In this document: one piece after another, positions 128-30,825 of the stretch
Numbering within the stretch: the stretch's first letter is position 1
Layout of the letters: each line of letters opens with the position of its first letter
Virus record (IMG/VR): IMGVR_UViG_3300025892_000006
Length of the DNA: 34,642 bases
Direction: 5' to 3' (one strand)
Origin: a virus
Made by a program: the position numbers and the translations under genes
The notes under the pieces: model-generated
What the model was told of the DNA's origin: nothing
The model's input: the letters and a program-made list of their open reading frames with translations, nothing else
The model's database searches: none

Positions 128-732
128 GTGCCGCTGCCGCTGCCGCAACTAAAGATAGTATTGATGAGTTCTATCTTGGCGCACAATCATCTAACCCAAC
201 AGTAGATAATAATGGTGATGCAGTTACCGCAGGTGATTGGTACTTTAATACAACAAGTAATGAAACAAGAATATACAATGGATCAGCTTGGCAAGTAACA
301 GCCGTATCAACTGCTGGATTACTTACTTCTGCTAATAACTTATCTGATGTTGCAAATGCAGGTACATCTAGGACTAACCTTGGATTAGGAACTGCTGCAA
401 CTACGGCAGCCACTGCGTATGTAGCTCAGACAGGAACAACTGCCTCAGCATCTATCCCAGCAGGTACAACAGGTCAGAGAGATGGCTCTCCAGCAAATGG
501 TATGTTTAGATACAACTCTACTCTCAGTGAGTTTGAGGGATATGCCGCAGGAGCATGGGGTTCTATTGGGGGTGGTGCATCAGCAGGTGGTGCTATCTAC
601 GAAAACACAGATGACATTACATCTAACTATACTTTAACTTCAGGATCGAATGGTATGTCAGTAGGGCCTATGACGATAGCATCAGGCGTTACAGTCACTG
701 TTCCTTCTGGACAACGATGGGTGATATTATAA
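1..732 (+). CDS. Tail fibre protein, C-terminal part. Same gene as 33490..34642, read through the circular junction; full length about 585 aa.
   Basis: Frame 1 is open from base 1 to the TAA at 730-732. Bases 1-127 duplicate 34516-34642 in the same codon phase as ATG 33490. Ala/Ser/Thr repeats are followed by fibre-like motifs (GDWYFNT..IYNGSAW, NLSDVANAGTSRTNLGLG, GMFRYNSTLSEFEGY). The track lists only 502..732. Confidence 0.85.
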   Translation, partial: SASTATTKASEASTSATAAATSATASATSATASASSATASAASAAAAAATKDSIDEFYLGAQSSNPTVDNNGDAVTAGDWYFNTTSNETRIYNGSAWQVTAVSTAGLLTSANNLSDVANAGTSRTNLGLGTAATTAATAYVAQTGTTASASIPAGTTGQRDGSPANGMFRYNSTLSEFEGYAAGAWGSIGGGASAGGAIYENTDDITSNYTLTSGSNGMSVGPMTIASGVTVTVPSGQRWVIL

Positions 733-733
733 T

Positions 734-1225
734 ATGAGTACAATAATTAATGCAGACACAAGTAATGGATTAAAGCTCACCTCTGATACCAGTGGTGAGA
801 TAAAACTACAAAGTGCAGGTGCAGATATTGCAACTGTAAATAGCAGTGGTATTACAATGGCAAGTGGAAAAACATTACCAGCTACATCACTAACAACAGC
901 AAGTGGTTCAGCACCTAGCTACTCTGCAAGAGCATGGGTAAACTTTAATGGTTCAGGTACAGTTGCTATTCGTGATAGTGAAAATGTAAGTTCGATTACG
1001 GATAATGGTACAGGTAATTATACAATGAACTTCACTACGGCAATGTCCGATGCTAATTATTGTGCTGTTTTTGGTTCAGAATATACTAGTAATTCTATTG
1101 CAGGAATAGTATGTGAAAACACTGGAACTACAAGAACCGCAAGCGCACTCCAAGTAAGGTCAGGAAACTCTAGTTCTGCGGGTGCTGTAAATTTAATAGC
1201 TATACAAATTGCAATCTTCAGCTAA
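734..1225 (+). CDS. Tail-fibre tip / receptor-binding protein, paralog A (163 aa)
   Basis: The ATG lies 1 nt after the fibre stop. The central block APSYSARAWVNFNGSGTVAIRDSENVSSITDNGTGNYTMNFTTAMSDANY is nearly identical to the block in ORF 1639..2127. The N- and C-termini differ. Confidence 0.8.
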   Translation: MSTIINADTSNGLKLTSDTSGEIKLQSAGADIATVNSSGITMASGKTLPATSLTTASGSAPSYSARAWVNFNGSGTVAIRDSENVSSITDNGTGNYTMNFTTAMSDANYCAVFGSEYTSNSIAGIVCENTGTTRTASALQVRSGNSSSAGAVNLIAIQIAIFS

Positions 1226-1235
1226 AGGAAAAAAA

Positions 1236-1424
1236 ATGAATAAAAGAATAGTATATACAAATGATGATGGGACAGTTTCTGTTATAGTACTAGCCAATGA
1301 ATGCGGATTAACTGTAGAACAAATTGCAGATAAAGATGTACCAGCAGGTAAGGAATATCACATTGTAGATGCAGCAGACATACCAACTGACAGAACTTTT
1401 AGGGATGCGTGGACATGGGAATAA
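1236..1424 (+). CDS. Small conserved protein, paralog A (62 aa); possible fibre assembly factor
   Basis: ATG at 1236 follows AAAGGA. The protein ends ..DRTFRDAWTWE and is paralogous to 2137..2304 (IVY..G.V.VIV....EYHIV....P.DRTFRDAW.WE). Confidence 0.65.
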   Translation: MNKRIVYTNDDGTVSVIVLANECGLTVEQIADKDVPAGKEYHIVDAADIPTDRTFRDAWTWE

Positions 1425-1639
1425 CAGTAAATATAACTAAAGCTAAAGACATCACAAAGGATAGACTGCGTGAAGAACGAAAGCCTCTACTTGAAGCACA
1501 AGATTTATTGTTTATGCAGGCTCAAGAACAAGGTGCAGATACAACTGCTATTGTAGCTGAAAAAAAGAGACTTCGTGATATAACTAAACAAGTAGACAGC
1601 ATGACAACTGTTGAAGAACTAAAAGGAGCATCTATCTAA
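1409..1639 (+). CDS. 76-aa helical protein, paralog A; possible fibre chaperone
   Basis: GTG at 1409 (or ATG at 1415) overlaps the stop of the upstream ORF. It is closely similar by eye at the amino-acid level to 2289..2522 (GITVNITKA..ITKDRLREERKPLLE...GADTTAIVAEK.RLRDIT.QVD.MTTVEELKGA). Its TAATG overlaps the next start. Confidence 0.7.
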   Translation: MDMGITVNITKAKDITKDRLREERKPLLEAQDLLFMQAQEQGADTTAIVAEKKRLRDITKQVDSMTTVEELKGASI

Positions 1640-2127
1640 TGGCTGACATAGTATTAACAGGAGACACCTCTGGATCTATTACAGTTGCAGCACCAGCAGT
1701 AGCAGGAACAAATACACTTACATTACCTGCAAGTACAGGGACAATGATAACTTCCGCAACAGCTGCAGCAGATGTACCAAAACCAACAGCACTTTCAACA
1801 GCTACTGGTGATGCACCAAGCTATTCAGCTAGAGCATGGGTAAACTTTAATGGTACAGGTACAGTGGCTATTCGTGATAGTGGTAATGTAAGTAGCATTA
1901 CTGACAGTGGGACTGGTACTTATAGGATTAACTTTGCGACTGCAATGCCTGATGCTAATTACGCAATGAATGCATTTTGTATTTTTAACACTACTGTTCC
2001 AGCAGGTAATGTAACTTATGGTAGTGATTACTCACAACTCGTAGGCAGCGTCACTATTAAATCAACAGTTCAATCAAGTAATGGTTTATTTGATTCAGCA
2101 TATGTATTAGCATCAATATTTAGATAA
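1639..2127 (+). CDS. Tail-fibre tip / receptor-binding protein, paralog B (162 aa)
   Basis: Shares the APSYSARAWVNFNGTGTVAIRDSGNVSSITDSGTGTYRINFATAMPDANY block with 734..1225. The C-terminal third has diverged. Confidence 0.8.
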   Translation: MADIVLTGDTSGSITVAAPAVAGTNTLTLPASTGTMITSATAAADVPKPTALSTATGDAPSYSARAWVNFNGTGTVAIRDSGNVSSITDSGTGTYRINFATAMPDANYAMNAFCIFNTTVPAGNVTYGSDYSQLVGSVTIKSTVQSSNGLFDSAYVLASIFR

Positions 2128-2136
2128 GGATAAATT

Positions 2137-2304
2137 ATGAGAATAGTATATAAAACAGAAGAAGGTGGAGTAGCAGTAATTGTACCTGCTGACACTATTG
2201 AAGCCTGTATGAAAGACATACCAGAAGGTGCAGAGTATCACATTGTAGAAGATTCAGAAGTACCATCAGATAGAACATTTAGGGATGCGTGGATATGGGA
2301 ATAA
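2137..2304 (+). CDS. Small conserved protein, paralog B (55 aa); below the ORF-track length cut-off
   Basis: Hand translation gives MRIVYKTEEGGVAVIVPADTIEACMKDIPEGAEYHIVEDSEVPSDRTFRDAWIWE. It holds the same position and has the same C-terminal motif as 1236..1424. Confidence 0.6.
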   Translation: MRIVYKTEEGGVAVIVPADTIEACMKDIPEGAEYHIVEDSEVPSDRTFRDAWIWE

Positions 2305-2522
2305 CAGTAAATATAACTAAAGCACAAAAGATTACTAAAGATAGATTAAGAGAAGAACGAAAGCCTTTACTTGAAAAACAAGACGTATTGTTCCAACGAG
2401 CATTAGAATCAGGGGCAGATACTACAGCTATCGTAGCAGAGAAACAAAGACTGCGTGATATTACTGACCAAGTAGATAACATGACTACAGTAGAAGAACT
2501 TAAAGGAGCGACTATATCATGA
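2289..2522 (+). CDS. 77-aa helical protein, paralog B; possible fibre chaperone
   Basis: Paralog of 1409..1639 with the same out-of-frame overlap with its upstream ORF (GTG 2289 / ATG 2295). An ATGA overlaps the next gene. Confidence 0.7.
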   Translation: MDMGITVNITKAQKITKDRLREERKPLLEKQDVLFQRALESGADTTAIVAEKQRLRDITDQVDNMTTVEELKGATIS

Positions 2523-3619
2523 GTGTAGCAATTAACGGAACTGATGGTATTACATATAATGATGGCTCATTACAACCCTCTGCTCCTGTAGGTAAGAATC
2601 TTATTATTAATGGCGATATGATGATTGACCAGAGGAATGCTGCAGCAAGTGCTACTTCTAATACTAGTGTCTATATGGTAGATAGATTTGAATTTCAAAT
2701 GTCAAGCGTTACTAATGTTCAAACTTACCAACAAGTGACAGATGCTCCAGCAGGGTTTAATAAGTCGTTAAAAATAACTAATAACTCAACAACTCAATCA
2801 ACAGCAGCAGGTGTTTTGTGTACTCCAAGACAAAAAATAGAAGGTTTTAATACAGCTCATTTAAATTGGGGAACTGCAAATGCTCAAACAGTTACAGTAT
2901 CATTTTGGGTAAAAGCCTCTGTCACAGGAACATACCCTGTAGCATTAACAAATGATGATTTTACTAGAAGTTTTGTAACTAATTATACAGTTTCTGTTGC
3001 TAATACTTGGGAAAAGAAAACTGTGACTATTACAGGAGATACATCAGGAACTTGGACTATTGATAATTCAACAGGAATTAATGTAATGTTTTCTTTAGAT
3101 ACAGGTTCAACTTATCAAACAACAGCAGATTCTTGGCAAGCAGGAAATTATAGAGGGACTTCTTCTGATGTACATTTTTTAGCTAACGCATCAGCAACAT
3201 GGCAAATCACAGGCGTACAACTAGAAGCAAATACAACAGCAACACCTTTTGAAAACCTTATGTACTCACAACAGTTGGCACTGTGTCAGAGGTATTATTA
3301 TATTCCTGCTCAAGGAGTTAATTCAGAAATAAATGTTGGCTGGTATTATAATAGTACTTGGCTGTCGTCTGCTATTGATATGCCAGTACCAATGAGAGTA
3401 AAACCAACTTTAACAGATACTACAGGTTCTAGTTATTATACTATGTATAGAAATAACACAGCAGATGCACTTGATTCATTAACACTAGAAAATAGTAATA
3501 ATAATCATACTTGTGTTTCTATATATAATAATTCTGATGTATCAGGAACAGGCGGTCAAGCTGGTATTTTACGAACAACAAATGCATTAGCTAAATTAGA
3601 ATTAGATTCGGAGTTATAA
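2519..3619 (+). CDS. Putative third receptor-binding / tail fibre protein (366 aa)
   Basis: Located in the fibre cluster. The N-terminal NLIINGDMMIDQR..YMVDRFEF pattern recalls jelly-roll fibre-tip domains (recollection). It is Ser/Thr/Asn-rich. Confidence 0.65.
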   Translation: MSVAINGTDGITYNDGSLQPSAPVGKNLIINGDMMIDQRNAAASATSNTSVYMVDRFEFQMSSVTNVQTYQQVTDAPAGFNKSLKITNNSTTQSTAAGVLCTPRQKIEGFNTAHLNWGTANAQTVTVSFWVKASVTGTYPVALTNDDFTRSFVTNYTVSVANTWEKKTVTITGDTSGTWTIDNSTGINVMFSLDTGSTYQTTADSWQAGNYRGTSSDVHFLANASATWQITGVQLEANTTATPFENLMYSQQLALCQRYYYIPAQGVNSEINVGWYYNSTWLSSAIDMPVPMRVKPTLTDTTGSSYYTMYRNNTADALDSLTLENSNNNHTCVSIYNNSDVSGTGGQAGILRTTNALAKLELDSEL

Positions 3620-3620
3620 T

Positions 3621-3797
3621 ATGTTAAAAAAATATCATAGACCAATAGGAATAGATGGAAAACTTTTAAATATAGTTTACTATGAAGAAAATAATAAAAG
3701 AGTTTCTATACCATTTGACCCAGCAAACACAGACTACCAAGCATACCTAGAATGGGTAGCTGACGGAAATACACCAGAAGAAGCAGATGAAGCCTGA
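3621..3797 (+). CDS. Small protein (58 aa), possible fibre-associated chaperone
   Basis: Hand translation gives MLKKYHRPIGIDGKLLNIVYYEENNKRVSIPFDPANTDYQAYLEWVADGNTPEEADEA. It starts 1 nt after the RBP stop. Below the track cut-off. Confidence 0.5.
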   Translation: MLKKYHRPIGIDGKLLNIVYYEENNKRVSIPFDPANTDYQAYLEWVADGNTPEEADEA

Positions 3798-4016: not shown

Positions 4017-4119
4017 AATTTTTCTAACAAAACCTATAACTGTTACCATAGCTTTATTGGCAGCACTTCCTGTTACTCCTTTAATTTTATGTTTATTATA
4101 TGGATGGACTGAATCATGA
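4003..4119 (+). CDS. 38-aa hydrophobic micro-ORF
   Basis: MHWFKIFLTKPITVTIALLAALPVTPLILCLLYGWTES. Its stop overlaps the holin ATG (ATGA at 4116-4119). Confidence 0.35.
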   Translation: MHWFKIFLTKPITVTIALLAALPVTPLILCLLYGWTES

Positions 4120-4508
4120 TACAAGCATTACTACCATTAATTGGAAATGTTATAGATCGAGTTGTTCCTGACAAGAACGCTAACGCAAAAGCAAAGAGAG
4201 AGATAGAAAAGTCTCTTACTGACAACGCTAACAAACTTTTACTAGCACAAACAGAAACCAACAAGATAGAAGCAGCTCATCAGAGTTTATTCGTTGCTGG
4301 ATGGCGACCTGCTATTGGATGGTCATGTGCATTAGGAGTCTTTTGGTTATTCATTGGTCATCCTTTGGCTACATGGATCGATCATTTAGATGGATCATTT
4401 CAGACACTCCCCTCTATAGATTCAGAGATACTACTTGAGCTTGTATTTGCAATGCTTGGGATTGCGGGATTAAGAACTTTTGAAAAGCTGAAGGGCCTAA
4501 CCAAGTAG
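4116..4508 (+). CDS. Holin, GTA-type 3TM holin family
   Basis: Motifs EAAHQSLFVAGWRPAIGW and GIAGLRTFEKLKG plus hydrophobic segments match my recollection of the GTA_holin_3TM family. It lies directly upstream of the endolysin. Confidence 0.8.
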   Translation: MIQALLPLIGNVIDRVVPDKNANAKAKREIEKSLTDNANKLLLAQTETNKIEAAHQSLFVAGWRPAIGWSCALGVFWLFIGHPLATWIDHLDGSFQTLPSIDSEILLELVFAMLGIAGLRTFEKLKGLTK

Positions 4509-4945
4509 TGCAACTCAGTCCTCACTTTACCTTAGCCGAGCTAAGTTATTCCAATACAGCTACAAGATTAGATATAGATAACACTCCCCTGGCAGAAGAA
4601 ATTGCTAACCTAGAAATTTTAGCAGAAGGATTAGAACAAGTTAGAAATAGATTAAACAGTATGCCAATATTTATATCAAGTGGGTTCAGATGCCTAGAAT
4701 TAAATCGTGCTTTAAAATCTAAAGATACTTCTTACCATATTTTAGGATTAGCAGCAGACTTTACTTGTCCTAGCTTTGGTAATATTCATGAAGTGATGAG
4801 AGCATTAGCTGATAGCTCAATACAGTTTGATCAACTCATCCTAGAGTTTGGAAGATGGATTCATATTGCTTTTCCAAAACAAGGAGAGAAACCTCGCAGA
4901 CAAATGATGAGGATAGGTAAGAGCGGAGTGTTGCTGTACGAGTAA
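4508..4945 (+). CDS. Endolysin, peptidase M15 (D-Ala-D-Ala carboxypeptidase-like) family
   Basis: GTG start overlaps the holin stop. Motifs: FTLAEL.., SSGFRCLELNRAL, SYHILGLAADF, WIHIAF (H/D/H zinc-site pattern). Confidence 0.85.
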   Translation: MQLSPHFTLAELSYSNTATRLDIDNTPLAEEIANLEILAEGLEQVRNRLNSMPIFISSGFRCLELNRALKSKDTSYHILGLAADFTCPSFGNIHEVMRALADSSIQFDQLILEFGRWIHIAFPKQGEKPRRQMMRIGKSGVLLYE

Positions 4946-4983: not shown

Positions 4984-5691
4984 ATGAGTAATTATAAATC
5001 CGTATTAGTCATATCTGATCTACACATACCTTACCATCATCCTGATGCGTTTAAATTTTTAGCAGCACTCAAGAAAAAATACAAGCCAGATTTAATCGTA
5101 AACATCGGTGATGAAATCGATCAACACTCTATTAGCTTTCATAATCATCATCCAGATCTAAAGTCACCAGGCGATGAGTTGCGTGCAGCTAGAGTGTATG
5201 TCAAAGAACTAGAGAAAATTTTTCCTAAGATGACCTTGGTACACTCCAATCATTCATCATTAGTTTATCGTAAGGCAGTCGCTCATGGATTGAGCCTAGA
5301 GTATCTTAAATCTTACAACGAGTTTCTAAATGTAGGCCCTGGATGGGAATGGGTAGATGACTTAAAGGTTACGCTATCTGATGGTCAAAGATGTTTCTTT
5401 ACTCATGGCATGGCAGCCGATGTCATGAAAGTGGCGCAGCAATATGGCATGAATTCTGTTCAGGGACACTATCATTCTAAATTTAGTATTAGTTATTATT
5501 CTAACCCTGACAAATTAGTATGGGGATTACAAACAGGATGTCTCATTAATCAAAAAGAGCTAGCCTTTGAGTATGCCAAAAATTTCAAGTCTCGATTTGT
5601 TGTTGGTTGTGGCATGATTATAGATGGACAACCCAAACTAATGCCGATGGTGTTAAAGGATGGAGGCCGATGGACAGGGATGATAGTTTAG
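4984..5691 (+). CDS. Calcineurin-like metallophosphoesterase
   Basis: Motif series SDLHIPYHH, GDEIDQH, HSNH, THGM and GHYH, typical of the metallophosphatase fold. Confidence 0.85.
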   Translation: MSNYKSVLVISDLHIPYHHPDAFKFLAALKKKYKPDLIVNIGDEIDQHSISFHNHHPDLKSPGDELRAARVYVKELEKIFPKMTLVHSNHSSLVYRKAVAHGLSLEYLKSYNEFLNVGPGWEWVDDLKVTLSDGQRCFFTHGMAADVMKVAQQYGMNSVQGHYHSKFSISYYSNPDKLVWGLQTGCLINQKELAFEYAKNFKSRFVVGCGMIIDGQPKLMPMVLKDGGRWTGMIV

Positions 5692-5903
5692 ATGTAGAGT
5701 TTACTTCCGAGGCTGATGCAGATCAAGCTGAAACTTTAGATAAGTTGATCGGGAGAAAAATTTGGAATGTAGAATTGCTAGAAGATGATACACAATCTAT
5801 GATCAAAATCTGTTTATCCCAAGAAGATGATGATTATTTACTGATTCATTGCGAAGGTGCAGATTTATATCTAGTTGAACCTAAAATGAAGTCAGTCCAC
5901 TAA
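5670..5903 (+). CDS. Acidic hypothetical protein (77 aa from the internal ATG)
   Basis: The track ORF is 5607..5903. I placed the start at ATG 5670 to limit overlap with the phosphoesterase. Start uncertain. Confidence 0.5.
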   Translation: MDRDDSLDVEFTSEADADQAETLDKLIGRKIWNVELLEDDTQSMIKICLSQEDDDYLLIHCEGADLYLVEPKMKSVH

Positions 5904-6080
5904 AAACGACCTCTTGTAAGGCTCGTGGTGAGCTTTTCTCATGTGTTCCTAGGGGGTAGTATCAAATTATATCGAAGTATTTACCAAGAGCCTCACGACA
6001 ACTCAAAACAACATTCATGGTTTTCTGTATAGATTAAACAATAAATTAGAGTAATATGCTAAATGAAAGGAGACAATACT

Positions 6081-6152
6081 ATGTGGACAACACCAATTGC
6101 AACAGAAATGCGTTTCGGTTTTGAAGTAACAATGTATGTAATGAATAAGTAA
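6081..6152 (+). CDS. pqqA: PqqA-like pyrroloquinoline quinone precursor peptide (23 aa)
   Basis: MWTTPIATEMRFGFEVTMYVMNK has MW..P and R.G.EVT.Y with Glu15/Tyr19 spaced as in PqqA. GGAG lies 8 nt upstream. A strong hairpin terminator begins 16 nt downstream. Not in the track (<60 aa). Confidence 0.75.
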   Translation: MWTTPIATEMRFGFEVTMYVMNK

Positions 6153-6167
6153 TACTTGTAATACAGA

Positions 6168-6201
6168 AATAGAGGATCATTTTCGATCCTCTATTCTTTT
6201 T
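6168..6201. terminator. Hairpin terminator between the convergent pqqA-like gene and the methyltransferase gene
   Basis: Perfect 11-bp stem AATAGAGGATC (6168-6178) / GATCCTCTATT (6185-6195) with a 6-nt loop, followed by CTTTTT on the + strand. The stem overlaps the last codons of the - strand methyltransferase. Confidence 0.65.
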
Positions 6202-7814
6202 CCTAACCATTCCATAACAGGAACGGCCATACTGTTACCCATTGCTTTATATCTGTGTCCATCAGGACAATTTTCTTTAATGTTTGTATATCCATCAGGA
6301 AAACCTTGCAATCTTTCACACTCAATTGGTGTTAATTTTCTTACTGCCATATTTGTTTGCATTATTCCATCTGTTCTACCTCCTTGACCGCCACGAATTA
6401 AAGTACCCATTTTGTTTACATTTGGATTTAATTCTGCATCCCAAGAAATAGGGGAAGCAACCGCTGGTGTCTTACTTTTGTCCAAGGTAGGAGTAATCGT
6501 ATCAACTGACATAGATTGTGAGTCACTATTCTGCCAACCAAAAGCTACTGCTTGATCCAATACAAACAAATCATTTCCTGTGCTTGTTCTAGTTAAAGTA
6601 GGTGATGGTTTTTGACCATTGTGTATCCTGTTGCTTTGGTCATACTTACCATCTTTATACTCAATTGTCATAATGCTTTTATCAAAACTATCATCTGTAA
6701 TTCTTAATAGCTCTTTCAACACAGGCCACACTTCAGGCTCAGGAACAGAAAAAAACTTATCAGTTCTAAACCAATGCTCTGCTGTTGTTTTTTTAACACC
6801 TATCTTTTGAGCTATATCTTTTATTGGCATATTTTTATGCTTTTTGAGTAGCTGTTGTAACCTATTTATATCAACATCATATTTTCTTACTGCAACCTCT
6901 TGTATAACATCATAAAAGTTTTTATTTAGCACAAAAGGAACATTACCCCCTCCTGTACCCCATCTTGCAGTTACAGAATGGCAAGTGTCACCCATCTCTT
7001 TAACACGACTATCTGCTGGATGATTTTCAAAAACTTCAACAATAGCTTTCTTATCCAAGCTATCAGAGTTTAATCCTTTATAGTCTCTTGCACATAAAGC
7101 ATCTATGTGGTCTTGATGTAACAAAGGTATCATTTTTGCTGAGGTTTTGTTGAGTCCATCTGTTCCCATGTCTTTGTAATCTCTTGCTTGGAGTGGGCCA
7201 CTTGTGTCAATGCCAATTCTAGTGTCTTTGGGAGTGTCTTTCCTCTTTTTTCTGCTCTCCTCAATATGCCTTGACAAGCTTTCTGGCTCAAATAATACTT
7301 CTGCGGTAGGTCTCCAGTCTCCAAGATGTCCGACAACAAAGACTCTTCGCCTTCGCTGTGGGACTCCGAAGTTCTGAGCATCAAGCACTCGGTAGCTGAA
7401 CCCATACCCGAGTTCGCCCACCGCCCCGAGGAATGAACCAAAATCCCGTCCTTTCGATGAACTGAGGACGCCTGGCACATTTTCCCAAATGAACCACTTG
7501 GGTTTAAATTTGTCAAGAATTCCACAATAGATGAGGGCAAGATTGCCTCTCGGATCTTCAAGTCCTTTTCTGAGTCCTGCGACTGAGAAGGATTGACAAG
7601 GTGTTCCTCCGACCAAAAGGTCAATTGTTTTTTCTCCAAAATTCCACTCCTTATAATTAGACATGTCTCCAAGGTTAGGCACACCGGGATAATGATGCGC
7701 CAATACCTCACTTGGAAACTTCTCAATTTCAGAAAACGCAACAGGATTCCAACCTAGCTTATGCCAAGCTACTGTTGCAGCCTCTACGCCACTACATACG
7801 GATAGATAGTTCAT
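6177..7814 (-). CDS. DNA (cytosine-5)-methyltransferase with an unusually long variable (target-recognition) region
   Basis: Motifs in order: LSVCSGVEAA (I), GGTPCQSFS (IV), ENVPG (VI), QRRRRVF (VIII), then about 320 aa, then RKLTPIECERLQGFPDGYT and GNSMAVPV (IX/X). Confidence 0.92.
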   Translation of the reverse strand: MNYLSVCSGVEAATVAWHKLGWNPVAFSEIEKFPSEVLAHHYPGVPNLGDMSNYKEWNFGEKTIDLLVGGTPCQSFSVAGLRKGLEDPRGNLALIYCGILDKFKPKWFIWENVPGVLSSSKGRDFGSFLGAVGELGYGFSYRVLDAQNFGVPQRRRRVFVVGHLGDWRPTAEVLFEPESLSRHIEESRKKRKDTPKDTRIGIDTSGPLQARDYKDMGTDGLNKTSAKMIPLLHQDHIDALCARDYKGLNSDSLDKKAIVEVFENHPADSRVKEMGDTCHSVTARWGTGGGNVPFVLNKNFYDVIQEVAVRKYDVDINRLQQLLKKHKNMPIKDIAQKIGVKKTTAEHWFRTDKFFSVPEPEVWPVLKELLRITDDSFDKSIMTIEYKDGKYDQSNRIHNGQKPSPTLTRTSTGNDLFVLDQAVAFGWQNSDSQSMSVDTITPTLDKSKTPAVASPISWDAELNPNVNKMGTLIRGGQGGRTDGIMQTNMAVRKLTPIECERLQGFPDGYTNIKENCPDGHRYKAMGNSMAVPVMEWLGKRIEDRK

Positions 7815-8026
7815 AGTAGTTTGTACTCTGCAAAACTACATGGCTCATCGAACCGATTTAATACTGACTTTCTCTCGGTTTCGATCTCGTAGTTTTTATT
7901 TCTTAACTTAAATACCACATCACTTAATCTATAAATACCAAGTTCAGTCCAAGCTTCCATCGGACTAATCTTTTTGTTTAATTCTAGGTAATGCAATAAT
8001 CTTGTTTCTTGATTTGTCATATTCAT
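7811..8026 (-). CDS. Small winged-helix DNA-binding protein (HTH_39-like)
   Basis: 71 aa. The pattern LLHYLELNKKISPMEAWTELGIYRLSDVVFKLRNKNYEIET..........AEYKL resembles that family. AGGAGAG RBS. Confidence 0.65.
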   Translation of the reverse strand: MNMTNQETRLLHYLELNKKISPMEAWTELGIYRLSDVVFKLRNKNYEIETERKSVLNRFDEPCSFAEYKLL

Positions 8027-8328
8027 TTATCTCTCCTGGTGTACATATTTTTAAGATTAATATTGTTGTCTCGCATCTCTCGAACTCGTCTTAATAATCC
8101 ATCACGACTTATCCGAGAAACACCAAGGCAATAATATATAAGTCCATCATCATTCTCTAGCCAATCCAATGCTTGTTGTCTCACCCTTGCACCTGATTGT
8201 GCTGCAACTGCATCATGTATCGCATTAGCTAGTATTGCAATAAACAATCTAGCATCAGGGTTACCCATGTTTGGATTGCTAAATGTAAAGTTTTCGTACT
8301 CTGCATCTACTAAATAATGGTCTTTCAT
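8023..8328 (-). CDS. Hypothetical protein (101 aa)
   Basis: Long ORF in the operon with a 4-nt overlap with the downstream gene. No family recognised. Confidence 0.7.
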   Translation of the reverse strand: MKDHYLVDAEYENFTFSNPNMGNPDARLFIAILANAIHDAVAAQSGARVRQQALDWLENDDGLIYYCLGVSRISRDGLLRRVREMRDNNINLKNMYTRRDK

Positions 8329-8330
8329 AA

Positions 8331-8543
8331 CTAATCCCTATGCTTATTAAAAAGGTCATCCATTGCTCTTTTAATGTCTGACAATTTGAACTTCGATATG
8401 CGGTTTTCCAACACCGCTTTGTTAGTTTTAAATAATAGGTCTGCTTTTTCCTTTTTAGTTTTAGCATCTGTTGATGAGCCATCTATCTTATTAATTAAGC
8501 TTATAAATCCATCTGTAAACTTGTACTCATCAGGAAACATCAA
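8331..8543 (-). CDS. Hypothetical protein (70 aa)
   Basis: AAGGAGAG RBS upstream of the ATG at 8543. Tightly packed in the operon. Confidence 0.7.
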   Translation of the reverse strand: MMFPDEYKFTDGFISLINKIDGSSTDAKTKKEKADLLFKTNKAVLENRISKFKLSDIKRAMDDLFNKHRD

Positions 8544-8563
8544 CTCTCCTTTGCCTGGCAGAC

Positions 8564-8998
8564 TCAGGCTAATGGCTTTTTTACAGGAGCTACCGCCTTT
8601 AACTTTTCAGTCATTGACTTTGTTCCCGCATTGCCATCATCATCTTCAGGCGCAATACCTGTTGCAGCCATGATTGAATAACGCCTAGCATAAGTTAGTG
8701 CCGAGCCATAACCTTGCGGTGTTTGTTTATCAGCGGGTACATGAATCACACCCCCTGACATCTCTTCGCCACTCTCATGCAAAAAGATTGTCTCAACCCT
8801 GATGCCTGATTCTGCATCATGAGTCTTTTGTATTAGTGCTAACCCATGATTGTGTAATGCATCTAGTACCGCTTCAATACAACCTGCCAAGTCTACATAC
8901 TGACTTTTAAAGTGTGGATTGGTACTGTTCTTTAATGCAGGTGCAAATTCTTTTTGTGCTGACACGAATGCCTTAGCAATCTCCGATGTTGTTGTCAT
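8564..8998 (-). CDS. erf: Erf-family single-strand annealing protein
   Basis: Motifs NPHFKSQYVDLA, GSALTYARRYS and APEDDDGN are typical of the ERF family. AAGGAGAA RBS. Confidence 0.85.
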   Translation of the reverse strand: MTTTSEIAKAFVSAQKEFAPALKNSTNPHFKSQYVDLAGCIEAVLDALHNHGLALIQKTHDAESGIRVETIFLHESGEEMSGGVIHVPADKQTPQGYGSALTYARRYSIMAATGIAPEDDDGNAGTKSMTEKLKAVAPVKKPLA

Positions 8999-9113
8999 TG
9001 TCTTTCTCCTTAAAATAAAGTTTAATAATATCTTGCCTTTTACTTACATCTTTTACATTGCGATACAACACTTCTAAAAAAGTATGAGTATCTTTCATTT
9101 CATAATCTTCCAT
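8973..9113 (-). CDS. Possible 46-aa ORF bridging the exonuclease and erf genes
   Basis: Hand translation gives MEDYEMKDTHTFLEVLYRNVKDVSKRQDIIKLYFKEKDNDNNIGDC. It fills the 117-bp gap and overlaps the erf start. Tentative. Confidence 0.3.
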   Translation of the reverse strand: MEDYEMKDTHTFLEVLYRNVKDVSKRQDIIKLYFKEKDNDNNIGDC

Positions 9114-9115
9114 AG

Positions 9116-10081
9116 TTATAACTCCCTATCGCGTATGCGAAGTTTAGATTGTCGAATAGTTCTTGCTTCTTTTGCTTTAACTATCTTTTCAGGCTGCGCT
9201 TTATAATTAATCACAGGCCATGATATTTTGTAACGCCCTGACACAGCATGTTGATTGTCTCGCATAAAATTCATAATCTGAATCTGATGTAAGTCAATCT
9301 GCTCTTCCAAGTCTTTTATCATGTCTCTAAATTCAATTATCTTTTCAGCATAATGCTCGGCTTCAGGTATCTCGATCTCATCCTTGTCAGGCTGATCGAA
9401 AATAGATGATGCCTCAGATGGTGTTTTGATGTCATACCATTCAACCTCATCATTGGTTTTATACTTATCTAACCTACGCTGAAAGTCATTGATAGCATCA
9501 TGTATTTGAGCCAATACATCTACATCCCTTTGGTAAACAAAAGTCCGTAGTGTTGTACCACGATACAAGACACACACTGCACCCCAAGTCGCACCGACTG
9601 TATCCATCTGCATTTGCAGTTGCAATGGGCCACGATAGAGAGGCAGTTGGTCAGCACTTTCTACCTCATGCGCAGTTAGTTTGGCTTCTACAACACCTAC
9701 GCCCTCTAACCTTATCTCGTCCTCATTGACACAGATAATACCTTTATCCAAGTCAGTCATAATCATTGAGTCATTGCCTTTGACATCACCATCTAAACTA
9801 CATGCAAATGGCAAGTCTTTATGGAAGTAAGGCTTAGGATGTTTAGTCGTTAAATCTTTGACATCTAATCCTAAACGCTTACACGCTTGAACCAAGATAG
9901 TCTCCTCCAAGGTATTGCCCCAATCCATTGATTCGTTAGATATAAATGGTGGTTCAATCCCTGAGATAATATCCATCTTTTCTTTTAACAGTTCATTGAC
10001 TGTTTTAAACTTACTAGCACCCATCAATACAGGTATCTCGGATGCTGAAAGTTGGTCGTTCGGTGTAACTTTTCCTACCAT
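9116..10081 (-). CDS. YqaJ-type (lambda Exo-like, PD-(D/E)XK) recombination exonuclease
   Basis: The N-terminal SASEIPVLMGASKF.T..EL..EK, WGN.LEE, SLDG, and VVEAK...Q.QMQ pattern is as in YqaJ viral recombinases. It is adjacent to erf. GGAGAG RBS. Confidence 0.85.
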   Translation of the reverse strand: MVGKVTPNDQLSASEIPVLMGASKFKTVNELLKEKMDIISGIEPPFISNESMDWGNTLEETILVQACKRLGLDVKDLTTKHPKPYFHKDLPFACSLDGDVKGNDSMIMTDLDKGIICVNEDEIRLEGVGVVEAKLTAHEVESADQLPLYRGPLQLQMQMDTVGATWGAVCVLYRGTTLRTFVYQRDVDVLAQIHDAINDFQRRLDKYKTNDEVEWYDIKTPSEASSIFDQPDKDEIEIPEAEHYAEKIIEFRDMIKDLEEQIDLHQIQIMNFMRDNQHAVSGRYKISWPVINYKAQPEKIVKAKEARTIRQSKLRIRDREL

Positions 10082-15935: not shown

Positions 15936-16074
15936 TCAACTGCGTAAAGAGTTTGAGATGGCAAATCAAAACAACTCAAGGGTTATGGAAGTTATTGATA
16001 TTTTGTATACAGAGAATCAAGAACTCAAGCGTATGCTGACAATGAAGTTCAAAGACATAGACGATGAGCAATAA
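15913..16074 (+). CDS. 53-aa coiled-coil-like ORF
   Basis: Hand translation gives MDIKLQIDQLRKEFEMANQNNSRVMEVIDILYTENQELKRMLTMKFKDIDDEQ. It fills the gap and overlaps the terL start. Confidence 0.45.
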   Translation: MDIKLQIDQLRKEFEMANQNNSRVMEVIDILYTENQELKRMLTMKFKDIDDEQ

Positions 16075-17617
16075 GAAAGTCCGTAGTGCCAAAACTCTTG
16101 CTGGCCCAGGAATTGATTTAGATTTTACTGGAGCTAGAACAACTTACGATTTCTTACAGGATAATTCATTTGTGCGTGGACTCATGGGGCCAGTAGGTAG
16201 TGGTAAGTCTTACGCTTGTGCTGCTGAAATTATGATGCGTGCTGTCAGGCAGAAACCATCACCACATGACAATGTTCGTTACACGAGATTTGTTATCGTT
16301 CGTAACTCATATCCTGAACTAAAAACAACAACAATTAAAACATGGCAAGAGATATTTCCTGAAAATACTTTTGGGCCAATGTTATATACACCACCAATAA
16401 CACATCATATTAGATTGCCTAAGCGTGGTGATGCATGTGGAATAGACTGTGAGGTTATATTCCTAGCACTTGATCAACCAAAGGATGTACGCAAACTACT
16501 ATCCTTAGAACTTACAGGAGCGTGGGTAAATGAAGCTAGAGAACTTCCTAAAGCAGTTATTGACGGCCTTACTCATCGTGTGGGTAGGTATCCTACTAAG
16601 CGTGATGGTGGCCCTACATGGCATGGAGTCTGGATGGACACTAACCCAATGGATGACGACCACTGGTGGTACAGACTGTCAGAAAAAGACAAGCTGTCAG
16701 GAAAGTTTGCTTGGCAATTTTTTAAACAACCAGGCGGTGTGGTCGAAGTCCAGCCTGAAGATTTACCAGAAAATCCAGAAGCCAACGATCATGTTTTCTC
16801 AGGAGGAAGATGGTGGACACTTAATAGAAAAGCAGAAAATGTAAATAACTTACCTAGTGGTTACTATATGCAAATGCTAGGCGGTAAAAACCTAGATTGG
16901 ATACGCTGTTATGCTGAAGGTAAATACACTTATGTACAAGAAGGCAGACCAGTATGGCCTGAGTACAATGATCAAATGATGAGTGGCGAAGTAGAATATG
17001 ATCCACAACTACCTATTCATGTTGGACTTGACTTTGGTTTAACACCTGCCGCAGCAATTGGACAAAGATTAAACAATGGTCGATGGGTTATCTTGCATGA
17101 AATAGTGACAGAAGATATGGGACTAGAAAGATTTGGTAATCAGTTGTTAGCAGAACTGAATGCCAAGTATCCTAAAGCACAAGTATTAATATGGGGCGAT
17201 CCTGCGGGTATGCAACGAGATGCAATCTATGAAGTAACGGCATTTGATTATTTACGAACATTAGGATTGCGTGCGCAACCCACTGCATCTAATAACTTTA
17301 AGGTTAGGCGAGAGGGAGCAGCTGCGCCAATGCAAAGATTAATTAATGGAAAACCTGGCTTGATTGTGGATAAATCATGTAAGATGATAAGAAAGTCATT
17401 AGCAGGTGGCTATCATTTTAAGCGTATTGCTGTCGGTGCAGGACATGAAAGGTTTAAAGATAGTCCAAATAAAAACGAACACTCACACATTGGTGATGCT
17501 TTTGGTTATTTAATGTTAGGTGGGGGCGAGCATAAACGAATGACTAAGAACAGTTTAGCAGCTAATACGATGATTGTGCAGACTGTTGCGACAGCAGAGT
17601 TTGATGTATTTAAGTAA
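16064..17617 (+). CDS. terL: Terminase large subunit
   Basis: 517 aa. Walker A motif GPVGSGKS, an ATPase domain followed by a nuclease domain, and placement between terS and the portal gene. Confidence 0.92.
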   Translation: MSNKKVRSAKTLAGPGIDLDFTGARTTYDFLQDNSFVRGLMGPVGSGKSYACAAEIMMRAVRQKPSPHDNVRYTRFVIVRNSYPELKTTTIKTWQEIFPENTFGPMLYTPPITHHIRLPKRGDACGIDCEVIFLALDQPKDVRKLLSLELTGAWVNEARELPKAVIDGLTHRVGRYPTKRDGGPTWHGVWMDTNPMDDDHWWYRLSEKDKLSGKFAWQFFKQPGGVVEVQPEDLPENPEANDHVFSGGRWWTLNRKAENVNNLPSGYYMQMLGGKNLDWIRCYAEGKYTYVQEGRPVWPEYNDQMMSGEVEYDPQLPIHVGLDFGLTPAAAIGQRLNNGRWVILHEIVTEDMGLERFGNQLLAELNAKYPKAQVLIWGDPAGMQRDAIYEVTAFDYLRTLGLRAQPTASNNFKVRREGAAAPMQRLINGKPGLIVDKSCKMIRKSLAGGYHFKRIAVGAGHERFKDSPNKNEHSHIGDAFGYLMLGGGEHKRMTKNSLAANTMIVQTVATAEFDVFK

Positions 17618-19559: not shown

Positions 19560-21152
19560 ATGGCAATGATGAGATTAGATGCAAAGCAAGTATTAGCTAG
19601 GCATGATAAAGCACTAACTAAAAAAGAAGATTTTAGAAGTCTTTATGATGAAGCTTACGAGTTTGCATTACCACAAAGAAATTTATACGATGGCTACTAT
19701 AATGGTGGCGTACAAGGTCAAAAGAAAATGAATCGTGTGTTTGATTCTACTGCAATCAACTCTACACAACGATTTGCAAATAGAATGCAATCAGGCATAT
19801 TTCCACCACAAAGAAAGTGGTGTCGACTAGAGCCTGGTTCAGATATACCACAAGACAGAAAAGCAGAAGCACAAGCTGCATTAGATGCGTATGGCGATAA
19901 GTTATTTGATACATTAAAACAATCTAACTTTGATATTGCTATTGGTGAGTTCTTATTAGACCTATGCGTAGGTACAGCAGTTATGCTAGTGCAACCAGGA
20001 GACGATACAAATCCTATAAACTTTATTTCTGTACCACAATTTTTAGTTGCATTTGATGAGGGTGCTAATGGTCAAGTAGATAATGTCTATAGAAGAATGA
20101 AGTTAAAAGCAGAGTCTATACAAAGACAGTGGCCTGATGCAGAACTTCCAGCAGAGCTAAAAAATCTAATAGATCAAAAACCAACAGAAGAAGTTGAGTT
20201 AGTTGAAGCAACTATATTCGATCCTGAGCGTGGTGACTATTGTTATCATGTAATTGACAAAAGAAGTAAGACAGAATTAGTGTATAGAAGAATGGATAAT
20301 ACACCTTGGATTGTTTCTCGTTATGCAAAAGTTGCAGGAGAAACATATGGCAGAGGCCCACTTATTACTGCTATGCCTGACATTAAAACACTCAATAAAA
20401 CATTAGAGTTAGTATTAAAGAATGCTTCATTATCTATTAGTGGTGTTTATACTGCGGCAGATGATGGTGTATTAAATCCAAACACAGTTAAGATTATGCC
20501 TGGTGCTATTATTCCTGTAGCTAGAAATGGTGGCCCACAAGGTGAATCATTAAGACCATTACCAAGAGCTGGTGACTTTAATGTATCACAAATTGTTATG
20601 GATGATTTAAGAGGTAACATCAAGCGTACATTACTAGATGAATCATTACCACCAGATAATATGTCAGCACGATCAGCAACAGAAGTTGTAGAGCGTATGA
20701 AAGAATTATCACAGAATTTAGGTTCTGCATTTGGTCGTTTAATTAACGAAACAATGATTCCTGTTGTAAAGCGTATGCTACAAGTAATGGATGAAAAAGG
20801 TTTGATTGCATTACCATTAAAAGTAAATGGATTAGAAATAAAAGTATCACCTGTTGCGCCATTAGCAATGGCACAGAATATGGAAGAAGTGCAACAAGTA
20901 TTACAGTATGCACAGATTGCACAAGGTGCTGGGCCTGAAGGCGCAGTTAATATTAAGGTAGATGAAATGATGGATTACATTGCTGAGAAGTTAGGCGTAC
21001 CACAAAAGCTTAGACCAACACCTCAAGAGCGCATGATGATGAAACAACAAATGCAACAAGCTGCACAACAACAACAAATGATGCAGATGGCAGCAGAAAA
21101 TCCTGAAGCAACTGCACAAGTAGTAGAAGCAGCAACACAACAACAAGGATAA
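19560..21152 (+). CDS. Portal (head-to-tail connector) protein
   Basis: 530 aa, placed after terL and before the scaffold and capsid genes. The N-terminus resembles podovirus connectors. Gln-rich C-terminus. Confidence 0.88.
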   Translation: MAMMRLDAKQVLARHDKALTKKEDFRSLYDEAYEFALPQRNLYDGYYNGGVQGQKKMNRVFDSTAINSTQRFANRMQSGIFPPQRKWCRLEPGSDIPQDRKAEAQAALDAYGDKLFDTLKQSNFDIAIGEFLLDLCVGTAVMLVQPGDDTNPINFISVPQFLVAFDEGANGQVDNVYRRMKLKAESIQRQWPDAELPAELKNLIDQKPTEEVELVEATIFDPERGDYCYHVIDKRSKTELVYRRMDNTPWIVSRYAKVAGETYGRGPLITAMPDIKTLNKTLELVLKNASLSISGVYTAADDGVLNPNTVKIMPGAIIPVARNGGPQGESLRPLPRAGDFNVSQIVMDDLRGNIKRTLLDESLPPDNMSARSATEVVERMKELSQNLGSAFGRLINETMIPVVKRMLQVMDEKGLIALPLKVNGLEIKVSPVAPLAMAQNMEEVQQVLQYAQIAQGAGPEGAVNIKVDEMMDYIAEKLGVPQKLRPTPQERMMMKQQMQQAAQQQQMMQMAAENPEATAQVVEAATQQQG

Positions 21153-22823: not shown

Positions 22824-23651
22824 ATGTCTATCGGATTATCCCCAGCATATGTAACGCTCTTTGATGCCGAAGTTAAACAGGCTTACCAAGGTAAAGCTGC
22901 ACTTGTAGAAGCTACAAGACAAAGACGAGGCGTTGAAGGCAATTTAGTTAAATTCCCAAAAGTTGGGAAAGGCGTGGCTACACTTCGTGTACCACAAACA
23001 GATGTTACACCACTCAATACTGACTTTTCACAAGTTACTGCGACTATGCAAGATTGGAACGCAGCTGAGTATTCAGACATCTTCATGCAACAAAAAGTTA
23101 ATTTTGAAGAAAGAACAGAGTTAGTTCAAGTAGTAGCGAACGCTATTGGTCGTCGACAAGATCAACTTATTCTTGATGCTCTTTTAGCAGGTAAAGGTTC
23201 TACAGTAGCTCATGGCTCTGCAAACCTAACAGTTGCTAAACTTCGTGATGCAAAGAAAACAATGGACACTAACAATGTACCAGCAGAAGACAGACACATG
23301 ATTATTCATGCAAACAACCTAGCACACTTACTATCAGAAACAGCAGTAACATCCGCTGATTTCAACACAGTTCGTGCGTTAGTATCTGGCGAAGTTGACA
23401 CATTCTTAGGATTTAAATTCCACACATTAGGTGATCGTACTGAAGGTGGTCTTTCTATTGATGGTTCAAATATTCGTTCTTGCCTAGCATTCCATAAGAC
23501 TGCTATTGGTTATGGCGAAGGCATCGGCCCTAAAACTGAAATCAACTATGTACCTGAAAAAACATCACACTTAGTAAACGCAATGCTATCAGCTTGCTCA
23601 GTTGCTATTGATGGCGAAGGTATTGTTGAAGTTCAAGCAGACGAATCATAA
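22824..23651 (+). CDS. Major capsid protein
   Basis: 275 aa. Strong TAAGGAGA RBS, its own 187-nt leader, a position after the scaffold gene, and a terminator after the next small gene. Confidence 0.85.
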   Translation: MSIGLSPAYVTLFDAEVKQAYQGKAALVEATRQRRGVEGNLVKFPKVGKGVATLRVPQTDVTPLNTDFSQVTATMQDWNAAEYSDIFMQQKVNFEERTELVQVVANAIGRRQDQLILDALLAGKGSTVAHGSANLTVAKLRDAKKTMDTNNVPAEDRHMIIHANNLAHLLSETAVTSADFNTVRALVSGEVDTFLGFKFHTLGDRTEGGLSIDGSNIRSCLAFHKTAIGYGEGIGPKTEINYVPEKTSHLVNAMLSACSVAIDGEGIVEVQADES

Positions 23652-24004: not shown

Positions 24005-24619
24005 ATGGCATCTGGAGACACCTCATTATCAATTTGTTCTGATGCATTATTAATGCTTGGAGCAAGTCCTATATCATCGTTCACTGAAGGTACGGACGAG
24101 GCTAACATATGCGATAGTTTATACAAAGATATTAAGATTAAGACTTTAGCAAGTTATCCTTGGTCTTTTTCATTTAAAAAAGTTCAGTTAGCTAGATTAA
24201 TTACTACGCCTACAACTGAATACAAATACGAATATGCACTACCTGCTGATATGATAGGTACACCAAGAAAGGTGTTCATCAGTAGTACACAGGGATCAGT
24301 GCCACAAAGAGAATATAGATTAGTCGGTGGTAAGTTGTTATCTAACTATGAAGAAGTGTATGTTGATTATCAATATGCAGTAGAAGAATATGAAATGCCA
24401 CATTACTTTGTGCAAAACATGAAGTATCAATTAGCATGGCATCTAGCTATGCCTATTACAGACCAATTAGAAAAGACTGATTATTGGAGAACAGTAGCAC
24501 AAGGCACTCCATCAGAAAATGGTCGTGGTGGTTACATGCGCCAAGCTATGAACATAGATGGGCAAGGTCAACCAACAAACGGAATACAAGACTTTACACT
24601 TATTGATGTGAGGTACTAA
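24005..24619 (+). CDS. Tail tubular protein A / adaptor (T7 gp11-like)
   Basis: 204 aa. The N-terminal pattern SDALLMLGASPISSF.EG.DEA..C...Y......L....WSF parallels that of T7 gp11. Confidence 0.7.
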   Translation: MASGDTSLSICSDALLMLGASPISSFTEGTDEANICDSLYKDIKIKTLASYPWSFSFKKVQLARLITTPTTEYKYEYALPADMIGTPRKVFISSTQGSVPQREYRLVGGKLLSNYEEVYVDYQYAVEEYEMPHYFVQNMKYQLAWHLAMPITDQLEKTDYWRTVAQGTPSENGRGGYMRQAMNIDGQGQPTNGIQDFTLIDVRY

Positions 24620-26577: not shown

Positions 26578-26580
26578 GAT

Positions 26581-27234
26581 ATGAGCAGTGTACTTAAAGT
26601 AGCAGTACCAATAGCATTAACAGCAGGGGCAATGTACGCAACAGGAGGTGCAGCAGGGGCAGGAGCAGCAGGTGCGGGAGGGGCATATACTGGCTCAACA
26701 TCTATGATGACTACTCTAGCAGCAGGTGGTGGTGGTGGTGGCGGATTACTTGCTGGTTTTTCAAGTGCATTATCATCTATGACTCCGTTTCAAATGCTTG
26801 CAACAGGAACTTCTGTATTACAAGGAATTAACTCTTTGTCTCAAGGTAATATGTTGCAAAGTCAATACGACTTACAAGCTCAACAAGTGCAAGCTCAAAA
26901 CGAAATAAACAAACTTAATTATATTAATGATGCTAATGAAAAAGCAAGAAGATTGATGGCTGTTAATGCCTCTGCTCTTGCGGCTGGATATGCAGGTGGA
27001 GTTAATGGTTTAGATGGTTCAGTTAAATTAATTATGAAAGAAAACGAAAAAGAATATATAAGTGATTTACAGATGGCAGAATTTAACCAATTAAATAATG
27101 ATAACTTTGCTGATGCTGAATCATCATTGTTAAGAGCTGCGGGTGACTCAGCTGCATTTGGATCAAAGGTAGAAGCTTTAGGATATATTGGGAGCGCAGC
27201 AAAACTATTTGAAGAATCAAGGATACCAACATAA
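26581..27234 (+). CDS. Internal virion / ejection protein (Gly/Ala-rich, membrane-active)
   Basis: 217 aa with a hydrophobic Gly/Ala-rich N-terminal half. It occupies the position of T7 gp13/14. Confidence 0.6.
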   Translation: MSSVLKVAVPIALTAGAMYATGGAAGAGAAGAGGAYTGSTSMMTTLAAGGGGGGGLLAGFSSALSSMTPFQMLATGTSVLQGINSLSQGNMLQSQYDLQAQQVQAQNEINKLNYINDANEKARRLMAVNASALAAGYAGGVNGLDGSVKLIMKENEKEYISDLQMAEFNQLNNDNFADAESSLLRAAGDSAAFGSKVEALGYIGSAAKLFEESRIPT

Positions 27235-29600: not shown

Positions 29601-29617
29601 TAGGAAGATAATATAGT

Positions 29618-30823: not shown

Positions 30824-30825
30824 CT

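Follow-up and report, generated by a model that had tools for sequence, protein, structure and literature searches.

A host-type pqqA gene in a probable marine methylophage genome and its recurrence among phages of methylotrophs

Pyrroloquinoline quinone (PQQ) is built from a glutamate and a tyrosine of the small peptide PqqA, which is presented by PqqD and cross-linked by the radical S-adenosylmethionine enzyme PqqE (PMC9851590; Coutinho et al. 2020, 10.1101/2020.04.02.019802). Here we describe a stand-alone pqqA gene in the IMG/VR virus sequence IMGVR_UViG_3300025892_000006 (34,642 nt, which is called the window throughout and means the full stretch) and compare it with the viral and bacterial copies on record. 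The first-pass annotation of this DNA knew of no phage-borne pqqA, but the gene had already been described in viruses. Coutinho et al. (2020; Microbiome 8:163; PMC7678222) found PqqA in the Lake Baikal virus VP_266, which has a predicted methylotroph host, and proposed that viral PqqA, together with a viral methanol dehydrogenase, assists PQQ-dependent methanol oxidation. A 2026 study of reservoir sediment listed viral pqqA, pqqD, and pqqE as auxiliary genes (PMC13188868).

The window resembles VP_266 in having a PqqA gene in a virus of a predicted methylotroph host, where it was read as an auxiliary metabolic gene. However, VP_266 is a freshwater metagenomic population with a methanol dehydrogenase, whereas the window is a complete and most likely marine genome in which no other methylotrophy gene was detected, and the VP_266 paper contains no report of pqqA in cultured methylophages, of a cassette structure, or of the selection regime. 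PQQ genes go unmentioned in the original descriptions of MEP301, Venkman, Melnitz, and MEP401/402, and our literature search found no report that all cultured methylophages carry pqqA. Viral pqqA itself is thus known, while its breadth across methylophages, its cassette structure, and its selection signal look unreported. Our reading, to which we give a probability of roughly three in four, is that the gene is a host-derived accessory auxiliary metabolic cassette that would feed host PQQ synthesis for methanol dehydrogenase during infection.

The pqqA coding sequence (6081..6152, plus strand) has 23 codons, from the ATG at 6081 to the TAA at 6150-6152, and encodes MWTTPIATEMRFGFEVTMYVMNK. The open reading frame (ORF), the GGAG 8 nt before the ATG, and the 11-bp stem with its T-run all lie where the first-pass annotation had put them. 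The E-x3-Y spacing of Glu15 (GAA, 6123-6125) and Tyr19 (TAT, 6135-6137), on which that annotation had leaned, is present within RFGFEVTMY. Its proposal that the peptide is a PqqA was confirmed by two family models, both passed at about twofold the cut-off: Pfam PF08042 scored 39.9 bits against a cut-off of 21.1 (E = 3.8e-10, full model 1-19), and the NCBIfam equivalog TIGR02107 scored 37.4 bits against 20 (E = 1.6e-9, model 1-21 of 21). The E-values of the PqqA models stay below about 1e-6 after correction for the few hundred small ORFs of the window, so chance is excluded. The match of about 14 of 23 residues to a Pseudomonas PqqA sequence that the first-pass annotation quoted holds arithmetically. 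The window peptide is identical at 22 of 23 positions to MWTTPAATEMRFGFEVTMYVMNK, with A6I as the sole difference, and MWTTPAATEMRFGFEVTMYVMNK directly precedes pqqBCDE in Methylophilaceae genomes (for example at loci L009, L037, L047, L080, and L089). The exact window peptide is found at NCBI under the name PqqA from a Methylophilaceae bacterium (MDA7691711.1 and relatives), in 11 contigs of which the longest has 1.37 Mb, and a 24-aa operon-linked PqqA of Acinetobacter has the same core. These model matches and identities establish the 23-aa ORF as a genuine PqqA, of the type found in the host family itself. Identity to host substrates also makes the peptide a predicted substrate for binding by PqqD and cross-linking by PqqE. 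A 29-aa version from the in-frame ATG at 6063 was rejected; this ATG lies 5' of the Shine-Dalgarno sequence and relatives do not share it, so the start was placed at 6081.

When PqqB-E of Acinetobacter and Methylophilaceae were used as tblastn queries, no pqqB-E was found in the complete window, in agreement with the first-pass annotation. This missing linkage to pqqBCDE is no bar to membership of the PqqA family, because unlinked copies are common in bacteria. The core EMRFGFEVTMY was searched as a degenerate DNA pattern, by which the core residues are fixed, in IMG/VR and in reference bacterial genomes. At least 120 reference bacterial stretches matched, most of which bear the name of a Methylophilaceae genus or are betaproteobacterial metagenome-assembled genomes named at a higher rank. 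pqqB(-C-D-E) directly follows in 27 of the listed bacterial stretches, where the linked peptide is typically MWTTPAATEMRFGFEVTMYVMNK, and 93 of the 120 listed stretches with the peptide have no pqqB-E within the stretch. Methylophilaceae are known to carry 3-12 pqqA copies against a single pqqBCDEFG (PMC4109929), and another methylotroph, which has five of them, expresses an unlinked one at a level among the highest (PMC9851590), so hosts themselves raise the precursor supply through extra solo copies of pqqA. The supplement of Salcher et al. 2019 (PMC6794327) scores pqqB-G as present in all tabulated groups of Methylophilaceae and pqqA as nearly always absent (0.03, 'not necessary'). Since our scans find pqqA throughout the Methylophilaceae, the short gene is evidently missed in host annotations as well.

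The window gene is very similar to these unlinked host copies (PMC4109929, PMC9851590). The peptide is 22/23 to 23/23 identical, it is likewise unlinked to pqqBCDE, and the gene has the same mini-cistron form, consisting of a Shine-Dalgarno sequence, 23 codons, and a strong terminator. It differs from them in that it is located between lysis and early genes and that its terminator comes partly from the coding sequence of a phage methyltransferase.

To see how far the gene extends among sequenced phages, the 23-mer was used as a tblastn query against 50,697 GenBank phage records, and 12 records matched. Ten of the 12 are methylophages, namely nine records of Methylophilales/Methylophilaceae phages and one uncultured freshwater phage. 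Intact pqqA is present in all nine GenBank Methylophilales/Methylophilaceae phages (P19250A, Venkman, MEP301, MEP401, MEP402, and four Melnitz isolates), and the carrier lineages are MEP301, P19250A/Venkman, MEP401/402 (Zobellviridae), and Melnitz (Kyanoviridae). The two other matches, both named 'Acinetobacter phage MD-2021a', were rejected as phage examples, being bacterial contigs with pqqABCDE, and they serve as a positive control. In both of them (CAKLQF020000010.1, locus L007, and CAKLQH020000055.1) the bacterial pqqABCDE is flanked by ppk and a 5'-nucleotidase gene, and they look like bacterial contigs filed as phage. A Pseudomonas-type PqqA probe recovered from the 50,697 records only the same methylophages and these two mislabelled contigs, so pqqA is specific to methylophages among sequenced phages; with a Methylorubrum-type probe, the Melnitz locus already found was matched again, but only marginally (E = 8). 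In IMG/VR, at least 120 contigs match the core pattern. By tblastn, no pqqB-E was found in the 120 listed contigs or in 205 phage and viral loci (1.66 Mb). That pqqA is a near-universal, laterally mobile cassette of Methylophilaceae phages, always without the pqq enzymes, is a wider claim for which we see about even odds; it would imply that precursor supply is the bottleneck.

This distribution also bears on what the PQQ would be used for. PQQ could be made from the phage peptide and benefit the phage by something other than methanol oxidation, such as redox or oxidative-stress protection or another PQQ-dependent enzyme. Nothing in the data links the product specifically to XoxF, and no methanol dehydrogenase was found among the window ORFs scanned. 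However, among the 50,697 phage records pqqA is confined to phages of obligate methylotrophs, phages of Pseudomonas, Acinetobacter, and Klebsiella do not have it, and the Baikal viruses pair PqqA with methanol dehydrogenase (10.1101/2020.04.02.019802), which makes such a benefit improbable compared with support of methanol oxidation.

In all inspected GenBank phage records, pqqA is either unannotated or covered by a spurious opposite-strand 'hypothetical protein', the latter in MW202481.1 (2067-2195, locus L004) and in Melnitz-1 (MZ577095.1, 74848-74943, locus L006). Routine annotation thus misses the gene, as had been supposed, and the opposite-strand ORF probably arose as an artefact of gene calling that masks the true gene. 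We regard pqqA as a clear case of a functional gene overlooked by standard phage annotation. In the T4-like Melnitz phages (Melnitz-1, locus L006, 4001-4166), pqqA lies directly 5' of a tRNA-Leu gene within a tRNA-containing region, and this context is unlike that in the small phages.

For a sample that did not depend on pqqA itself, 80 IMG/VR loci were collected via the neighbouring metallophosphoesterase (71-99% amino-acid identity). An intact PqqA ORF is held by 47 of the 64 neighbour-sampled loci with at least 2.5 kb downstream, which answers the check on conservation in related phages that the earlier reading had proposed, and the other 17 have no pqqA remnant (blastn, word size 7, E <= 1e-3). 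The proportion of synonymous differences (pS) among 43 distinct phage coding sequences was 0.57, the proportion of nonsynonymous differences (pN) was 0.08, and the ratio of nonsynonymous to synonymous divergence (dN/dS) was 0.08, with synonymous sites near saturation. The ratio was 0.09 at codons not constrained by the regular expression used for detection and 0.03 in the core. M1, W2, and P5 are invariant in the 107 distinct viral nucleotide sequences listed, while codons and neighbours vary freely. Judged from these sequences, strong purifying selection acts on phage pqqA, at the level of the peptide rather than of the DNA.

The selection analysis is the main evidence about a neutral passenger, that is, a fragment of host DNA acquired through illegitimate recombination, not yet purged, and with no role in infection. 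This would agree with a gene so tiny and host-like, with its presence/absence polymorphism among near-identical phages, and with the 17/64 relatives without the gene. But a conserved peptide at near-saturated synonymous sites, with a dN/dS of 0.08 over 43 distinct sequences, is not what it predicts. Every copy in the neighbour-sampled MEP301-like relatives is intact and no remnant was found at the gene-less loci, relatives retain the same site even where the flanking gene has diverged to 71-89% amino-acid identity, and pqqA occurs in four or more unrelated phage lineages, among them a T4-like myovirus. We therefore consider a neutral passenger unlikely.

Because selection acts on the peptide, a role in recombination or as an attachment site is also disfavoured. 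In this explanation the 72 nt would be a patch of homology to host pqqA copies, used for attachment or recombination (integration or gene exchange mediated by Erf/RecE), and not a gene. Hosts do carry 3-12 dispersed pqqA copies as possible targets (PMC4109929), genes for Erf and a RecE-like exonuclease are nearby in the phage, and the cassette has moved among many phage contexts. But nucleotide identity to the bacterial copies is only about 80-90%, just 1 of the 107 distinct listed viral sequences is common to the bacterial set, and the divergence is concentrated at synonymous sites. The start codon, Shine-Dalgarno sequence, and stop are retained throughout, no integrase was found among the 20 larger window ORFs scanned, and pqqA is also present in the T4-like Melnitz phages. 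Of all the explanations weighed, we give this one the least credence.

A third alternative, raised by the first-pass annotation, is that the peptide is a decoy or inhibitor that titrates PqqD/PqqE or the processing peptidases and so lowers host PQQ synthesis. The phage brings only the binding partner and no enzymes, which would suit a decoy, and the window copy is substituted (A6I) in the N-terminal part of the peptide. However, 45 of the 120 listed viral peptides are identical to the two commonest bacterial PqqA peptides, and a peptide identical to that of the host would be expected to serve as a substrate rather than to inhibit. Methylophilaceae assemblies also encode the A6I variant itself. 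Glu and Tyr are present in every copy recovered, by a search that required both, and no remnant was found in the neighbour-sampled relatives without the ORF. There is also no evident rationale for a lytic phage to reduce the energy supply of its host. A decoy is thus very improbable.

The gene behaves as part of a small cassette (5987..6184, plus strand, about 180-200 bp), which is made up of the 5' leader, Shine-Dalgarno sequence, pqqA, and the left terminator arm. It is present in the window and in three loci of the same phage type (L140, L248, and L257). In the cassette-less siblings L250, L251, and L253-L256, similarity to the window ends at about 5986-6004 and returns at about 6184-6190, with flanks 92-97% identical (blastn) and about 30-45 nt of unrelated sequence in the cassette's place. 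More distant relatives (L201, L266, L267, and others) retain pqqA at the same position and are collinear from the phosphoesterase onward, so loss in the sibling clade is more parsimonious than gain in the window. The downstream methyltransferase is no part of pqqA function, yet it is shaped by the cassette: its C-terminus (6177-6200, minus strand) reads ..RIEDRK before the stop with pqqA and ..RIELVSKTS before the stop in the pqqA-less siblings (L255, 3400-3520).

Phage morons are independent promoter-gene-terminator units inserted between phage genes, and they are classically found in temperate phages and expressed from the prophage. Since near-identical siblings lack the cassette of about 180-200 bp, pqqA behaves as a moron-type accessory gene. 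Like a moron, it is a small host-like gene with its own terminator and shows a clean presence/absence indel between sibling phages. Among the 110 listed viral loci with two callable neighbours there were 73 combinations of neighbour family and orientation, and pqqA was antisense to both neighbours in 45/110. These combinations replaced a single-linkage clustering of flanks by tblastx, which merged 117 of 127 loci through mosaic gene sharing. Unlike classical morons, the pqqA phages have no integrase among the ORFs scanned or are T4-like, and the window's own promoter is only a candidate.

The first-pass annotation had called the locus a self-contained unit, and this was only half borne out: the terminator is solid, but the scan of the upstream region found no sigma-70-type promoter, and the one candidate is weak. 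The Shine-Dalgarno sequence AAAGGAG (6066..6072, plus strand) has its GGAG at 6069-6072 and an 8-nt spacer to the ATG. The intrinsic terminator (6168..6201, plus strand) has a perfect 11-bp stem (6168-6178 / 6185-6195), a 6-nt loop, and a C followed by TTTTT (6197-6201). The terminator scan recovers this hairpin, with a fold of -16 kcal/mol, z = -5.0, and 0/200 shuffles as stable. The minus-strand methyltransferase ORF runs into this hairpin and stops at 6177, so that the loop and right arm lie over the 3' end of the methyltransferase gene. The right arm is therefore coding sequence, formed by the codons for RIED, and one DNA stretch doubles as methyltransferase coding sequence and pqqA terminator stem. 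In the MEP301-like relatives this position is occupied by another hairpin, which is GC-rich. A weak candidate -10 element, TAATAT (6052..6057, plus strand), has no -35 match and is aligned with the CATAAT box of the MEP301-like relatives.

Across the listed matches, a motif like the Shine-Dalgarno sequence was found upstream of 108/114 viral and 111/115 bacterial pqqA copies. A terminator-like hairpin was found 3' of 51/114 listed viral copies, against 7/342 random control windows, and 3' of 102/115 listed bacterial copies. Hexamers similar to a -10 element cluster 30-50 nt 5' of the ATG across the listed viral copies. A near-palindrome, CTGTATTACATGTATTACAG, lies about 40-70 nt 5' of pqqA and just upstream of the CATAAT box in MEP301-like relatives (loci L201, L266, L267, L269, L288, L291, L295, L319, and L325). 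It is operator-like in appearance. As a LexA box it was rejected, the spacing being N12 rather than N8. Of the conserved near-palindrome CTGTAT...ACAG, the window retains CTGTAT only.

In our preferred reading, supply of the precursor to host PQQ synthesis, the 23-aa peptide would be translated from its own Shine-Dalgarno sequence, on a transcript predicted to end at the hairpin 6168-6201. Host PqqD would bind the peptide, PqqE would cross-link Glu15 to Tyr19, and host PqqF/G, PqqB, and PqqC would convert the cross-linked peptide to PQQ. Because one PqqA is used per PQQ and the enzymes are catalytic, the phage would need to supply only the consumable. The phage peptide may add to or replace the precursor supply as host transcription declines, and the PQQ supply would be kept or raised for the periplasmic XoxF-type methanol dehydrogenase and hence for energy generation.

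Several points weigh against this reading. What the data show is the identity, context, selection, and distribution of the gene; that it is expressed, that host enzymes process the peptide, and that the phage gains from this are steps that we infer. A promoter scan of 5904-6080 found no sigma-70-type consensus promoter, and transcription of pqqA may depend on read-through from the late/lysis operon; the peptide would then appear late in infection, where a metabolic boost is less obviously useful. The gene is dispensable, because 17/64 relatives, including siblings with 92-97% identical flanks, do not have it. A benefit also presupposes that PQQ turns over fast enough within one latent period for new synthesis to matter. 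That the window phage's own host strain has pqqBCDE is presumed from the literature and related genomes. In addition, PQQ is a routine supplement of OM43 culture media (PMC9004378), so a fitness effect could be condition-dependent.

Cyanophages carry psbA, encoding D1, a rapidly turned-over part of the host energy system, and the host supplies the rest. By analogy, the window phage may likewise bring only the consumed component. The difference is that PqqA is a sacrificial substrate of cofactor synthesis and not a subunit of an energy complex, and its role in phages is a proposed one. If the wider claim of a near-universal cassette is true, pqqA would be a heterotroph counterpart of cyanophage psbA, and the precursor peptide, not the biosynthetic enzymes, would limit PQQ/XoxF energy metabolism in infected methylotrophs. 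Coastal seas and lakes harbour abundant OM43 and LD28 methylotrophs, which oxidise methanol via the PQQ-dependent XoxF. If methylophages systematically carry the PQQ consumable, viruses would have a direct influence on one step of the marine one-carbon cycle, and the 72-nt gene would be a practical host-prediction marker for uncultured methylophages. PQQ production would then seem to be limited by precursor supply, a point of interest for industrial PQQ as well. MEP301, Venkman, Melnitz, and MEP401/402 are in culture with the same gene, so the hypothesis is directly testable.

The remaining features of the window agree with a phage of this kind. An exact 127-bp direct repeat is present at the ends (1-127 and 34516-34642), so the window is a complete phage genome; the repeat reflects either overlapping ends of a circular assembly or genuine terminal repeats. 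The GC content is 36.8%. Matches to the PHROG families placed a tail fibre at 2519-3619, a holin at 4116-4508, an endolysin at 4508-4945, and the metallophosphoesterase that is the upstream neighbour of pqqA at 4984-5691 (PHROG 221, E = 6.6e-65), all on the plus strand. On the minus strand follow the 545-aa C5 DNA methyltransferase at 6177-7814 (PHROG 116, E = 1.4e-92), which is convergent with pqqA, Erf at 8564-8998, and the RecE-like exonuclease at 9116-10081. The plus strand further carries the large terminase at 16064-17617, the portal/adaptor at 19560-21152, the major head protein at 22824-23651, and tail and internal virion proteins at 24619-33417. Viral genes of the terminase, portal/adaptor, head, tail, holin, endolysin, Erf, and exonuclease families are thus found on both sides of pqqA, and the position between convergent late (+) and early (-) blocks that the first reading had described is supported by the PHROG assignments as lysis/late and early genes.

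The closest cultured relative is the OM43 phage MEP301, with about 70% nucleotide identity over shared genes (blastn) and the same gene order around pqqA. The tail-fibre region (window 461-3787) has 82-84% nucleotide identity to MEP401 and Venkman (blastn), and this identity to OM43 phages indicates a host of the OM43 clade. The methylotrophic proteobacterial host guessed at earlier therefore fits both the MEP301-like genome and the tail-fibre genes. From these comparisons, the window is most likely a marine, lytic MEP301-like phage of OM43-clade Methylophilaceae. MEP401 and Venkman are otherwise unrelated to the window phage, which suggests lateral exchange of host-recognition modules among methylophages.

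A megablast of window 5000-9000 against GenBank phages gave no match, and relatives emerged with blastn and tblastn only. No tRNA genes were found in the window, and integration linked to a tRNA gene was rejected. Rfam gave only sub-threshold chance matches at 5700-6400 (sraA with 23 bits against 56, and SNORD44). A 203-aa ORF in another frame (7130-7741, minus strand) lies wholly within the methyltransferase gene and is most likely spurious.

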